Shown one piece after another: positions 9,025 to 23,157 of a stretch of DNA of 64,000 nucleotides. Location: positions 2,642,425 through 2,706,424 of the forward strand of contig NZ_CP050265.1 of assembly GCF_011765465.1 (NCBI RefSeq). The letters run 5' to 3'. Every line of letters begins with the position of its first letter. Within the stretch, counting starts at the first letter, position 1. Made by a program: the position numbers and the translations under genes. The stretch is from Erythrobacter sp. GTDB taxonomy: Bacteria > Pseudomonadota > Alphaproteobacteria > Sphingomonadales > Sphingomonadaceae. The notes below the pieces were generated by a model that saw only the letters and a program-made list of their open reading frames with translations, made no database searches and was not told the origin of the DNA.

Positions 9025-9461
9025 GCGGCCCTCTCTTCAATCGTGGGTCGGGTTTTCGGCGGCGGTGGATCGCGCAGCTGGGCGAGCGTGATCTCGGCCA
9101 GTGCGCCGCGCAGCGCGTCGTTGATGATCGGCCAGTGCGGCTTCATCGAGCAGCCGGCCTCGAAATCGCAGTCGCCATGGTCGATGCAGGCGGTCAGCGC
9201 GATGGGGCCTTCGACCGCCTCGACGATGTCGGCAACGGTGATCGCCGCGGCAGGCCGGCCCAGTTGCAGCCCGCCGCCCGCGCCGCGGACCGAGCGCAGC
9301 AGGCCCGCCGCGGTCAGTTTCGACACGAGCCGTTGCACCGTCGGCACCGGAAGCCCGGTTTCGCTCGCCAGTTCCGCCGCGCTCACTCGCCCGTCGCCGC
9401 AATGGCGTGACGCCTGCGACATGGTGATGACGGCATAATCGGCGAGGTTGGAAAGGCGCAT
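9021..9461 (-). CDS. Rrf2-family (IscR-like) SUF-system regulator
   Basis: [19 protein letters not shown], and a C-x5-C-x5-C cluster-ligand motif; first gene of the suf operon. Confidence 0.9.
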
Positions 9462-9486
9462 CGGCTCCTGCTTGCGAATGATTCTC

Positions 9487-9511
9487 AAATCGGACTATTT
9501 CGTTCCGATTA
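9487..9511. promoter_or_regulatory. IscR type-1-like operator upstream of the suf operon
   Basis: AATCGGA-N9-TCCGATT inverted repeat (9488-9510), about 25 bp upstream of the Rrf2 start; core GACTATTT resembles the IscR type-1 site. Confidence 0.6.
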
Positions 9512-9640
9512 GGAAATACGAGCAAAATGCTCGGATTTCAATGCCCGATGGCCTGTTGCGAGTCGTTAGCGAAAGGGGCGCGCAACCTGTCGGCGCGCGC
9601 CCCTCGCTCGATCGAATCGATCGCGGCGGGAAACTGCGGC

Positions 9641-11467
9641 TCAGCCGCCGCGCTTTTCGCGTGCGACCCAGTCCTCGACCCGTTCCTCGAGGATCGACAG
9701 CGGCACCGGCCCGCTCAGCAGCACGGTGTCGTGGAAGCCGCGATAATCGAAATCCTCGCCCAACTCGCCTTGCGCCATGTCGCGCAGTTCCATGATCTTC
9801 AATTTGCCGATCATGTAGGCGGTCGCCTGGCCGGGATAGACGATGTAACGCTCGATCGCCTTGACGATGTCGCCTTCGGGATTGGGCGTGTTGTCCTTGA
9901 GATACTGGATCGCCTCCTCGCGGCTCCAGCGCTTGGAATGGATGCCGGTGTCGACCACCAGCCGGCACGCCCGCCACAGCTCCATGCCGAGCCGCCCGAA
10001 ATCCGAATAAGGATCCTCGTAGAAGCCCATGTCCTTGCCGAGCTCCTCAGAATAGAGGCCCCAGCCCTCGGTATAGGCGGTCCACCCGCCGAAGCGGCGG
10101 AAGGGCGGCACGTCGCCGAGCTCGGTCTGGAGCGCGCGCTGGAGGTGATGGCCGGGCATCCCTTCGTGATAGGCGAGCGCTTCCAGCTCGTTCTTCGACA
10201 TATCCCTGAGATTGTAGAGATTGACGTAATAGGTGCCCGGCCTCGACCCGTCGACCGCGGGGCTCTGGTAGAATGCCTTCCCGGCGCTCTTCTCGCGGAA
10301 AGCCTCGACCGGCTTGATGATCATGTCCGCTTTGGGCAGCCTTCCGAAATATTGCGGCAGCTTCGCCTCGAGCGCGTCGAGCTTGGCCTGCGCATCGGCA
10401 AGGTATTCCTCGCGCGTGTCGTAGAAGAAGCGGTCGTCGGTGCGAGTGTATTCGAAGAAGTCCTGCAGGTCGCCATCAAAGCCGACCCGCTCCATGATCT
10501 TGCGCATCTCGCCGTGGATACGCTCGACCTGCTGCAGGCCGATTTCGTGAATTTCCTCGGCATCGAGATCGGTCGTGGTGTAGTTCTTGAGCAGCGCGGC
10601 GTAATAGGCTTCTCCGTTCGGGAAGCGCCACACGCCGTCGTCGGTCGGGGCCATCGGCTGCTGCCGCTTCAGTTCGGCGAGCAGGCGCTTGTAGGCGGGC
10701 AGGGCTTCGGCGTTCCAGGCGGCGACGGCATCGGCCTTCATCGCTGCGGTCGTTTCGGCATCGAGGCCGAGCGCCTCGACCTTCTTGGCGAAGTCCCTGA
10801 GAACGGCGTTGTCGTCGCCCGCCGCGATCAGTCCTTCGACGTCGGAAATCATGTAGGGATAGGTCCAGTCGGGCGGCATCACGCCCGCCTCGGCCCGCTC
10901 GGCGGCTTCGGCGATATGAGCGTCGAGCTGCGCCCCGATCCCGGCAATGCGCGAGACATAGGCTTCGGCATCGGAAACACTGCCGACGCGGTGGATGTTG
11001 ATGAGAAAGGCCGGGATGCCGGTGTGCGGGCCGGAGCGCTGGTCGAAGACATAGCCGAGCTCGCGATAGGGCCACAGCATCGCGCTGCGCTGCGCGGTGA
11101 GATCGAACAGGCGGTAGGACAGCGCGTCCTGTTCATCGAGCGTGGCGGGATCGTATTTCGCCCGCATCTGCGCGGCGGCATAGAGCAGCATAAGCGCTTC
11201 ACGCCGCTCGGCCTCATCGGAAACCTCGCCCCAGCGCCCGTAATCCTCGTCGCGGATGCCGCGATAAGCCTTGGTCGCCGGGCTCATTTCGAGCTGCGCC
11301 GCGTCATAGGCTTCGAACAGGTCGCCGATCGTTTCGGCCTCGGCGATTGCGGTCCAGGCATCCTCGGCGGCGGTCGCGCTCACCGGGGGCGGCGCGTCCT
11401 GCGCCGTAACAGCGCCGGCAGTGGCGAGTGCGAGGAGCGAAGTGGCGAGGAAACTGGTGCGACGCAT
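9641..11467 (-). CDS. DUF885-family exported metallopeptidase-like protein
   Basis: Signal peptide MRRTSFLATSLLALA; HEGMPGHHLQ, YTEGWGLYSE and PGQATAYMIGKL motifs. Confidence 0.88.
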   Translation of the reverse strand: MRRTSFLATSLLALATAGAVTAQDAPPPVSATAAEDAWTAIAEAETIGDLFEAYDAAQLEMSPATKAYRGIRDEDYGRWGEVSDEAERREALMLLYAAAQMRAKYDPATLDEQDALSYRLFDLTAQRSAMLWPYRELGYVFDQRSGPHTGIPAFLINIHRVGSVSDAEAYVSRIAGIGAQLDAHIAEAAERAEAGVMPPDWTYPYMISDVEGLIAAGDDNAVLRDFAKKVEALGLDAETTAAMKADAVAAWNAEALPAYKRLLAELKRQQPMAPTDDGVWRFPNGEAYYAALLKNYTTTDLDAEEIHEIGLQQVERIHGEMRKIMERVGFDGDLQDFFEYTRTDDRFFYDTREEYLADAQAKLDALEAKLPQYFGRLPKADMIIKPVEAFREKSAGKAFYQSPAVDGSRPGTYYVNLYNLRDMSKNELEALAYHEGMPGHHLQRALQTELGDVPPFRRFGGWTAYTEGWGLYSEELGKDMGFYEDPYSDFGRLGMELWRACRLVVDTGIHSKRWSREEAIQYLKDNTPNPEGDIVKAIERYIVYPGQATAYMIGKLKIMELRDMAQGELGEDFDYRGFHDTVLLSGPVPLSILEERVEDWVAREKRGG

Positions 11468-11560
11468 GGAAACCCTTTCGTGTCTCGGGAGCCGTCCGCG
11501 TGAACGCTCCCGCTTGTCGGCGCCGACATAGCGAAGGCGCGAACTATTGCAAAACGAACG

Positions 11561-11592
11561 AAAAAAGGGCGGCCCCCGAAAGGAGGCCGCCC
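11561..11592 (-). terminator. Rho-independent terminator on the minus strand
   Basis: Minus strand reads GGGCGGCCUCC-UUUC-GGGGGCCGCCC-UUUUUU. Confidence 0.85.
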
Positions 11593-11850
11593 ATCTGAGT
11601 TGAGGAACTCTTCGCATTTCTGCTCCGAGCCCTTCGGGTCGCAAAAATGCTTATAGGGAGCCTTGCGGCGGGATAATTGTATGCAAGCGACAGGCGGACG
11701 GAAGATTGCGCCGCGATCCATTCACCTAGGTTGGAATCCTTGAGGACAGGCGCGCTGCGCACACGCCGATGACGACCGTCATCGGAGCCGAACCGGCTGC
11801 GACCGAAAGCGATTCGGCAGGGGCTGAGCGGCTCCCGGCTCTCGACACCC
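11561..11850 (-). ncRNA. Candidate structured non-coding RNA, family not recognised; 5' end uncertain
   Basis: At least five stems in a gap with no credible ORF, a G-U pair that works only on the minus strand, a GCAA tetraloop, and its own terminator. Confidence 0.5.
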
Positions 11851-11881
11851 GCGCGGGGTGTGGCATAGGCATCGACCGGCC

Positions 11882-22561: not shown

Positions 22562-23079
22562 TGGCTGACGAAAAGAACACCGTGTCCGACCTTTCGGACA
22601 TCAAGGACATCGCTGGCGACGCCCCCGAAGCCGATGCCGCCGAAATCGCCCAGAACCCCGCCGCCCCGCTGCGCGAGCAGGAGCTCGACGCGCAGGGCCG
22701 CGCCTATGCCACCGGCCGCCGCAAGGACGCCGTGGCGCGCGTCTGGGTCAAGCCGGGCACGGGCAAGGTGACCGTCAACGGCAAGGACCAGGAAGTCTAC
22801 TTCGCGCGTCCGACCCTGCGGCTCATCATCAACCAGCCCTTCGCCATCACCGACCGCGACGGCCAGTACGATGTCGTCGCCACGGTGCGCGGCGGCGGCC
22901 TTTCGGGCCAGGCCGGCGCGGTCAAGCACGGCATCAGCCAGGCCCTGACCAAGTACGAGCCCGCGCTGCGCGGCATCGTCAAGTCGGCCGGCTTCCTCAC
23001 CCGCGACAGCCGCGTGGTCGAGCGCAAAAAGTACGGCAAGGCCAAGGCCCGCCGGAGCTTCCAGTTCTCGAAGCGCTGA
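22561..23079 (+). CDS. rpsI: 30S ribosomal protein S9
   Basis: [23 protein letters not shown] and C-terminal QFSKR; ATG overlaps the rplM stop. Confidence 0.98.
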
Positions 23080-23101
23080 TCGCTTCTCACACGCACACGC
23101 G

Positions 23102-23136
23102 AAAGGGCGGCTTCCCGGTGGGGGAGCCGCCCTTTT
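23102..23136 (+). terminator. Rho-independent terminator after rpsI (possibly bidirectional)
   Basis: AAAGGGCGGCTTCCC-loop-GGGGAGCCGCCCTTTT. Confidence 0.85.
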
Positions 23137-23157
23137 CTCTTGTCGAGCGGGCCGTGC

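Follow-up and report, generated by a model that had tools for sequence, protein, structure and literature searches.

A previously uncatalogued small RNA (sRNA) gene of about 82 nt probably occupies the minus strand between the DUF885 and pyrD genes of Erythrobacter sp., from about 11642 to about 11561 of the window (the whole 64-kb stretch of DNA that was analysed), and would give rise to an independently transcribed, trans-acting RNA of the Hfq type. Judged by comparison of homologous sequences, the sRNA is a well-supported new family of a familiar kind that is conserved across Sphingomonadales. The predicted RNA (~82 nt, 11561-11642, minus strand) reads 5'-GCGACCCGAAGGGCUCGGAGCAGAAAUGCGAAGAGUUCCUCAACUCAGAUGGGCGGCCUCCUUUCGGGGGCCGCCCUUUUUU-3' and is supported by covariance model R1 and by fold energy. 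The model, which was built from 109 non-redundant homologs, scored the window at 82.4 bits (E 2e-21) at 11644-11559 of the minus strand and found no second copy of the sRNA in the 64 kb. The MFE of the 81-82-nt window RNA was -39.1 kcal/mol (z -2.65), and the fold was that of the model with helices P1 and P2 and a terminator described below.

Identity and distribution of the small RNA

The intergenic gap is 414 nt long (11469-11881) and is flanked by divergent genes for a DUF885 secreted protein (minus strand, ATG 11467; Pfam E 1e-177) and for pyrD (plus strand, ATG 11882; DHO_dh E 2e-85). The first-pass annotation had described it as a gap lacking a credible ORF and holding an RNA of no known family, and both statements stood. 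No conserved ORF was found in the gap or in alignment A1, where the sole AUG (11618-11616) falls in the variable P2 loop region, and a small protein gene was rejected because A1 contains no conserved reading frame with a start codon. Rfam 15 at curated thresholds gave 0 matches in the 64-kb window, and scans of the window and its relatives at gathering and E-value thresholds returned no family; in the E-value scans, matches other than RF00519 spanned little except the terminator or the linker. The invariant 14-16-mers did not turn up in the text of papers, and nothing corresponding to the sRNA was found in the literature on sphingomonad, Zymomonas or suf-linked sRNAs.

Conservation in relatives, which the first-pass annotation had proposed as a check, was found by blastn of the gap against 80 pyrD loci (one genome per species): only ~11558-11699 is kept across Sphingomonadales pyrD loci, with matches upstream of pyrD in Erythrobacter, Altererythrobacter, Allopontixanthobacter, Novosphingobium and other Sphingomonadaceae. 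The conserved DNA unit measures about 135 bp (11692-11561). More than 110 distinct homologs are present in Sphingomonadales genomes and metagenomes. Metagenome contigs were scanned using the pattern GCGACCCGAAGGGCTC-N(10-26)-GAGTYC, under which nt 11-16 and GAGUYC could not vary in the metagenome set; 120 stretches were retrieved, amounting to ~115 further distinct homologs, and all but 4 (coding-sequence or terminator-less matches) share the sRNA architecture. Read on the RNA strand, this architecture consists of TGTCG-N6-TACAAT, 20 free nt, TAnnnn and ~7 nt before GCGACCCGAA, followed by GGGCUC and GAGUUC on either side of a variable hairpin, and then by a U/C-rich linker and a GC-rich hairpin with 6-8 U behind it.

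In Erythrobacter dokdonensis (LZYB01000004.1) and Erythrobacter sp. BLCC-B19 (CP117516.1) the sRNA scores 82-83 bits and occupies a gap without a called gene. Divergent members detected with the covariance model at 35-40 bits belong to Hephaestia mangrovi, a Sphingomonas MAG and a Sphingomonadaceae isolate, and the most AT-rich members adjoin Sphingorhabdus by pyrD similarity. The model found no homolog at pyrD loci of Rhizobiales, Caulobacterales, Rhodospirillales or Rhodobacterales, and at the Sphingomicrobium and Novosphingopyxis loci a copy was undetectable at the corresponding position.

RNA structure, strand and conserved 5' end

The RNA begins with a single-stranded 5' end, GCGACCCGAA (11633-11642, minus strand), which comparison of homologs marks as a putative seed. 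It is invariant in 11 homologs that were found by synteny, a set without any imposed sequence pattern; at locus L017 a 1-nt insertion turns it into GCGACCCAGAA. The core GCGACCCGA is unchanged in the divergent members L021 and L059 despite an altered helix P1, and GCGACCCGA(A) is unpaired in the consensus fold, divergent members with a changed P1 included.

Downstream lies a long hairpin (11605-11632, minus strand) made up of P1, an internal loop and P2, and recognised by its G.U pairs and covariation. P1 pairs GGGCUC (11632-11627) with GAGUUC (11610-11605) and is nearly invariant, with G.U at two positions in 101-108 of 109 sequences, which on the other strand would be A.C. Where P1 does change, pairing is kept: C-G is replaced by U-A and G.U by G-C in L059, and G.U by A-U and U-A by U.G in L021. 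P2 (GCA/UGC, 11623-11621 with 11616-11614) encloses a GAAA loop at 11620-11617; it covaries across the family, and its loops are often GNRA (GCAA, GAAA, GCGA, GGAA). An alternative 5' hairpin proposed by RNAalifold, GACCC/GGG-UC, was rejected, being 5 kcal/mol worse than P1 plus P2 and broken in L021.

The hairpin is followed by a single-stranded U/C- and A-rich linker, CUCAACUCAGAU (11593-11604, minus strand), semi-conserved as YUCNACUU in alignment A1, which is a possible second pairing or Hfq-contact region. The first-pass annotation had taken GAGUUCCUCAACUCAG, just before the terminator, to be unpaired and to carry an anti-Shine-Dalgarno-like UUCCUC. The segment is unpaired only in part, as its GAGUUC forms the 3' arm of P1, and UUCCUC is not family-wide, other members having UUCUCG or UUCUUU in its place.

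The minus-strand terminator reported earlier at 11561-11592 was recovered by a terminator scan as an intrinsic terminator with an 11-bp GC-rich stem (11592-11567), a UUUC loop and a run of 6 U (11566-11561). All nine modelled pairs (9/9) show compensatory changes, 92-95% of cells are paired, and every member of the family has 6-8 U.

Covariation, another check proposed in the first-pass annotation, supported the pairs in both MAFFT and model-fitted alignments. In the structure-blind MAFFT alignment, 84% of cells were paired under the three-helix model, compared with 35-51% when the partners were slid; the covariation score was 0.242 against 0.154 for shuffles (0/500 reached it), and all five measures applied to this alignment exceeded 500/500 shuffles. 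The model-fitted alignment of 52 diverse members, which is biased toward structure, gave 89% paired cells and double changes at 16 of 21 pairs. Single-sequence folding did not distinguish the strands; the assignment to the minus strand follows from the U-run, from the G.U pairs of P1 and from the GNRA loops that close P2. The earlier description of a structured minus-strand RNA is borne out just upstream of the terminator, and not for the whole of 11561-11850. Its 10-bp stem 11614-11623/11641-11650 was not confirmed: most of the 5' arm precedes the inferred start, and 3 uncompensated changes fall in the stem in a relative of ~93% identity.

Genomic context and separate transcription

On the minus strand past DUF885, the window contains the Rrf2-family SUF regulator gene iscR (TIGR02944 above cut-off, true ATG at 9461) and then sufB. 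Wherever iscR/sufB were detected (~85 loci), they lie downstream of the sRNA and are co-oriented with it. In ~45 loci iscR is directly next, 70-200 nt past the U-run and with no AraC gene between; elsewhere iscR follows a ~1-kb AraC-family gene, DUF885 (as in the window) or both. The sRNA is usually divergent from pyrD. At L017 and in a marine group, where DUF885 lies upstream of the sRNA and pyrD is non-adjacent, the sRNA stays beside iscR-suf. This position of the gene at the head of iscR-suf had been missed by the first-pass annotation.

An AraC-family gene is the immediate downstream neighbour of the sRNA in 48 of 106 loci and stands behind DUF885 in 5 more; of the AraC-like orthologs looked up from the protein side, 3/3 adjoin the sRNA. 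No NCBIfam model covers this neighbour, and Pfam gives only HTH_18, with or without DUF6597. The 64-kb window contains no AraC-family homolog, yet the promoter box and the sRNA are intact in it, which weakens the AraC link at least for the Erythrobacter sp. described here.

The downstream genes carry promoters of their own, which argues that the sRNA is a separate transcription unit. Between the sRNA terminator and iscR there is a conserved iscR promoter (TTGAAA/CTAGAT) together with a palindromic operator, AAATCGGAnCGAnTCnCTCCGATTT, and the AraC-like gene has its own promoter, TTGAC-N17-nATAnn, right behind the sRNA terminator. The operator is probably the counterpart of IscR-alpha-II, a motif that has been predicted for Sphingomonadales (PMC1698941).

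Transcript evidence was sought in public RNA data. Two raw RNA runs gave zero reads on the sRNA. RNA-run contigs with homologs or with the relative of the window (X6, X8, X28-30, X38-40, X45, X48, X53) overrun both gene ends, with upstream ends at -8, -21, -32, -34, -53 and -117, and are indistinguishable from DNA carry-over or read-through.

A different reading makes the element a cis-acting 5' leader or attenuator, whose transcript from the box promoter would normally end at the terminator and, on some signal, run on into the genes beyond (DUF885 in the window), the short RNA being a by-product. The element is indeed co-oriented with the next gene and just 15-200 nt upstream of it, and the RNA-run contigs do cross the terminator; these contigs, however, also reach upstream of the promoter and may be DNA. 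The gene that would be controlled varies by lineage (iscR, AraC-like or DUF885), and each following gene has its own conserved promoter past the terminator, joined at iscR by the operator. A conserved anti-terminator pairing is impossible because the 5' end never varies whereas the arms of the terminator are free to covary, and the upstream segments are all either invariant or locked in P1/P2. The terminator is moreover strong, with 9-11 GC-rich pairs and 6-8 U. A leader is considered quite unlikely, and an independently transcribed sRNA remains the preferred reading.

Promoter box and transcription start

Upstream of the RNA lies a 17-bp box, TGTCGCTTGCATACAAT (TGTCG-N6-TACAAT; 11676-11692, minus strand, -49 to -33), which is near-invariant in 116 homologs. 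It consists of two near-invariant blocks one helical turn apart, and its distance to the G of GCGACC is fixed at 37-38 nt in 116 of 118 upstream sequences, a set in which there is no conservation upstream of the box. Each locus has a single copy, at the sRNA every time; a regulon search found no other copies in the 64-kb window (chance expectation 0.87 matches with 2 mismatches allowed) or in the loci. The box is a probable activator binding site, with its centre near -41 and abutting the -35 position.

Base frequencies were tabulated relative to the invariant G. Position -12 is T in 64% and position -11 is A in 78% of sequences, with a 1-nt register shift in the rest; -1 is a pyrimidine (T in 85%) and +1 is G in 100%. 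From these frequencies we infer a weak, activator-dependent -10 promoter with the hexamer TATAAG (11650-11655, minus strand; T-12, A-11) and a start at G 11642 of GCGACCC. The 32 nt from TACAAT to the G are constant in length and show neither conserved sequence nor conserved structure (mean z -0.44). Hairpins in this promoter spacer were accordingly rejected as a 5' RNA domain, as they are not conserved across homologs; among them is the GCC-GCAA-GGC GNRA hairpin (11660-11669) to which the first-pass annotation had drawn attention.

The first-pass annotation had also proposed an Hfq-type sRNA of about 110 nt driven by TACAAT as an internal -10. A predicted promoter and a terminator of its own were found and TACAAT is near-invariant, so the core of this proposal was retained, with the length corrected to ~82 nt and TACAAT read as more probably the promoter-proximal half of an activator box. 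Were TACAAT (11681-11676) instead the -10 of the same gene, the RNA would be ~108 nt long and have a variable 5' extension. The hexamer matches 5 of 6 consensus positions and is highly conserved, and two low-depth RNA-run contigs begin 32-34 nt upstream of GCGACC, immediately past TACAAT. These contigs, however, begin too near the hexamer, and others begin at -8, -21, -53 and -117. Among homologs, 15% have C or G as the second base of TACAAT and 16% have G as the last, the next 32 nt are fixed in length and free in sequence and structure, and T and A stand exactly at -12/-11 from the invariant G in a Y/R start context. On the strength of the variable second base, the featureless fixed 32 nt and the T/A at -12/-11, TACAAT is more probably an activator half-box (-38 to -33) than a -10, and the longer RNA is regarded as improbable.

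A single AraC-type DNA-binding domain would contact two blocks one helical turn apart next to the -35, as at the marbox. The activator of the sRNA may be the neighbouring AraC-family protein.

Proposed function

The sRNA is most likely a trans-acting, Hfq-type base-pairing RNA with a 5' seed and an activator-driven promoter. In the proposed mechanism, an activator bound at the -49 to -33 box would switch on the weak -10 promoter, with transcription starting at the G of GCGACCC; the candidate activator is the AraC-family protein that is encoded beside the sRNA in half of the genomes, though not in the window. The RNA would then base-pair in trans through its invariant 5' end, GCGACCCGA(A), acting as seed, and the terminator hairpin with its U-tail would serve as the chaperone handle. 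The Hfq-type reading is derived from the anatomy of the RNA, in which the invariant 5' end is left unpaired, a stable hairpin and a linker rich in A/U and C come next, and the terminator carries a U-tail. Its own inferred promoter, a terminator with at least 6 U and a conserved unpaired putative seed are the features found that bear on membership of this class. The Hfq-sRNA system is functional in sphingomonads.

The regulon of the sRNA may touch Fe-S, iron or redox homeostasis, a link that is suggested by gene position as its sole basis. Searches for targets gave little: no complement of the seed was found elsewhere in the 64-kb window, and the translation-initiation region of iscR paired with the whole RNA or with the seed alone no better than shuffled sequence did. 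Seven-mer seed complements showed a weak, ~2-fold enrichment downstream of the sRNA, and the AraC-like gene of a few lineages bears, in its 5' region, UCGGGUCG, which is complementary to nt 2-9 of the sRNA.

The empty searches of the window and of iscR would also suit a real sRNA that does not base-pair, its 5' end and hairpin binding or titrating a protein, or the DNA from +1 to +9 being an operator half-site. Sixteen invariant nt exceed what most seeds need (nt 11-16 being pattern-imposed in the metagenome set), and TTGCGA resembles the first half of the Fur-box-like TTGCGAATGATTCTCAA at iscR. However, just 6-7 nt of that 17-bp Fur-like box match and the second half-site is absent, and the retention of GCGACCCGA while P1 undergoes compensatory change points to a constraint at the RNA level, the usual signature of a seed. 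Such a non-pairing role is given a low probability, and base pairing through the 5' end is preferred.

Comparison with known systems

In RybB, OmrA/OmrB and MicA the extreme 5' end is the seed, and the regulators are sigma-E or OmpR. The sRNA described here resembles them in having an unpaired 5' end as its most conserved part, followed by a hairpin and a terminator; there is no homology, and the type of regulator is different. InvR in Salmonella is activated by HilD and TarA/TarB in Vibrio cholerae by ToxT, both nearby AraC-family regulators. Here, in contrast, the window and ~45 other loci lack an adjacent AraC gene, and the site is a predicted one. The marbox of MarA/SoxS/Rob has the form GCAC-N7-YAAA and overlaps the -35. 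With GTCG-N7-ACAA, two blocks one turn apart and abutting the -35, the box resembles the site of an AraC domain, but its sequence is not a marbox.

RyhB, PrrF, IsaR1 and Caulobacter RusT are likewise small and trans-acting and serve iron or Fe-S economy, and the sRNA here lies physically beside iscR-suf. They are repressed by Fur, whose box covers the promoter, whereas the conserved site here, at -49 to -33, is typical of an activator; no Fur box overlaps the sRNA promoter, and no sequence similarity to RyhB, PrrF, IsaR1 or RusT was found. A target of RyhB is iscRSUA (summarised in PMC11475020 and PMC6956336). The sRNA might be the missing Fe-S/iron riboregulator of Sphingomonadales, a functional counterpart of RyhB under the control of an activator instead of Fur repression and with a dedicated AraC-type sensor beside it, an idea that is judged rather unlikely as it stands. 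The invariant 5' seed would then control a conserved regulon that tunes the demand for Fe-S proteins alongside the IscR- and Fur-controlled suf genes.

MmgR and SuhB share with the sRNA an alphaproteobacterial intergenic origin, a size of ~60-80 nt, a 5' hairpin, a pyrimidine-rich strand and a Rho-independent terminator, and SuhB is Hfq-dependent and activator-controlled in a sphingomonad. They differ from it in sequence, hairpin, 5' end, promoter motif and genomic place. SuhB of Sphingopyxis granuli TFA, the sole sRNA characterised in that strain according to a 2025 preprint (bioRxiv 10.64898/2025.12.09.693200), has 61 nt, starts with CACACUUGCCUUUUAGGCAUCCUCUC and has the promoter site ATTGCAAAAAATGCAAC, which is bound by a LysR regulator (PMC6563040; bioRxiv 10.64898/2025.12.09.693200 supplement). 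Identity with SuhB/MmgR was rejected, as the published SuhB primers and promoter probe differ from the sRNA here. That the sRNA is a distant member of the alpha-r8/MmgR/SuhB family (RF00519) was weighed separately. RF00519 was the best alphaproteobacterial Rfam family in the E-value scan (16 bits, E 0.3-0.9), and its layout of hairpin, pyrimidine-rich single strand and terminator is comparable. The score of 16 bits nevertheless compares with a gathering threshold of 41 and comes from a terminator-based alignment with a forced 43-nt insertion in the hairpin; RF00519 has a short GCCC/GGGC-type 5' hairpin and a GUUUCCUCCCU-type strand, in place of which the sRNA has the linker CUCAACUCAGAU; 0/16 Sphingomonadales loci reach threshold; and the published S. 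granuli TFA SuhB differs in sequence and promoter. Membership is very improbable.

Spacer toward pyrD

Between the sRNA box and the pyrD promoter lies a hypervariable spacer (11693-11840) that is outside the RNA. In an alignment of 14 close relatives it varies in length (~20-150 nt) and also in sequence, and for 11700-11881 neither a homolog in 200 loci nor a repeat within the 64-kb window was found, on which grounds an origin from a repeat or mobile element was rejected. Contigs of the ~93% identical relative keep 11300-11738 and have 94 unrelated letters in place of 11739-11834. The hairpin CCGATGAC/GTCATCGG and the GGAGCCG/CGGCTCC helices (11766-11835), which the first-pass annotation had counted as part of the structured RNA, lie in this spacer, lack a homolog in the 200 loci and are replaced in the relative; nor was its "second element" found, the spacer being unconserved beyond ~11700. 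A single structured RNA of ~290 nt spanning 11561-11850, for which many local stems can be drawn in the single window sequence, has practically negligible probability, since conservation ends at ~11700 in all relatives, the spacer shrinks and grows between 20 and 150 nt, the 93% relative replaces the region and the promoter box would fall inside the proposed transcript.

The candidate pyrD promoter proposed earlier (plus strand, 11841-11869; -35 CTCGAC(A), -10 CATAGG, N17), which ends 12 nt before ATG 11882, proved to be conserved: both hexamers of CTCGACA-N16/17-CATAGG are kept in 14/14 aligned Erythrobacteraceae-type loci. The earlier view that the RNA is not simply a pyrD leader was likewise supported.

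Significance

In Sphingomonadales, which are important for the degradation of aromatic pollutants and for marine carbon cycling, the number of known regulatory RNAs is very small. The family is unusually well defined: its sequences number more than 110, their 5' end is invariant, a dedicated box precedes them and their place by the Fe-S assembly operon is fixed. It offers a handle for experiments, for a new Rfam entry and for annotation (in complete Erythrobacter genomes the gene has gone without one). If the positional links to iscR-suf and to the AraC-family gene are functional, they would show how Fe-S and iron homeostasis in these bacteria gains a further, post-transcriptional level of control.

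Distribution of the sRNA locus

Within the window, a weak match to the covariance model of the sRNA (15 bits, E about 0.01) was located at 23065-23140 on the plus strand and was rejected as a paralog, being merely another GGGCGGC...GCCGCCC terminator. Among the related loci, no sRNA copy was detectable in L011, L014, and L015 (Sphingomicrobium) or in L012 (Novosphingopyxis), all members of the Sphingomonadales in which pyrD and iscR-sufB are still together; the pyrD-iscR gap in L014 and L015 spans 62-148 nt, which is insufficient for a copy.

Control regions of the flanking genes

The pyrD promoter, CTCGACA-N16/17-CATAGG (window 11841-11881, plus strand), is kept in 14 relatives. Just 12 nt separate its end from the ATG; the leader of the pyrD mRNA is therefore very short. 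The start of iscR is placed at a TTG (9488) in the ORF list, as against a conserved ATG at 9461. Four motifs were observed on the minus strand 5' of this ATG, in the iscR-suf control region (9472-9567), namely AACGACTCGCAA (9567-9556), a TTGAAA -35 element (9542-9537), AATCGGAACGAAATAGTCCGATT (9510-9488), a palindromic operator also present in approximately 45 related loci, and the Fur-box-like palindrome TTGAGAATCATTCGCAA (9488-9472).

Directly after the sRNA terminator, TTGCAATAGTTCGCG (window 11538-11552, minus strand) was noted. It is similar to a box preceding iscR in some relatives (e.g., TTGAGAATAGTTCGCAA in L120) and may serve the DUF885 gene as its promoter or operator; in L100, the closest relative of the window, TTTTGCAATA from this same region is kept.

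Methylation motif in the promoters of sRNA homologs

A GANTC site was found at -24 to -20 of the sRNA promoter spacer in 49 of 117 homologs, compared with approximately 13 expected by chance, and is often in the form CGAWTCG (e.g., L095, L104, L173, and L180); the spacer of the window sRNA does not contain it. GANTC is the CcrM methylation motif, and this finding hints at methylation- or cell-cycle-linked control in some lineages.

AraC-family neighbor of the sRNA

Immediately 3' of the sRNA, roughly half of the loci encode an AraC-family regulator of approximately 306 aa with an HTH_18 domain and, in some cases, DUF6597 (L001, 2747-3667; L090, 2462-3382; L180, 4097-5998; L087, 8605-9447; L201/L202, 4001-4927), with two tandem paralogs in some loci. 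In L100 the gene lies between DUF885 and iscR. It is absent from the window, and in this genome is either lost or kept elsewhere. In L081, L088, L184, L199, and L008, UCGGGUCG(A) is located 25-45 nt after the sRNA terminator, within the 5' region of the neighboring AraC-like gene. Because this element is complementary to sRNA nt 2-9, the sRNA might exert feedback on its AraC-like neighbor in these lineages.
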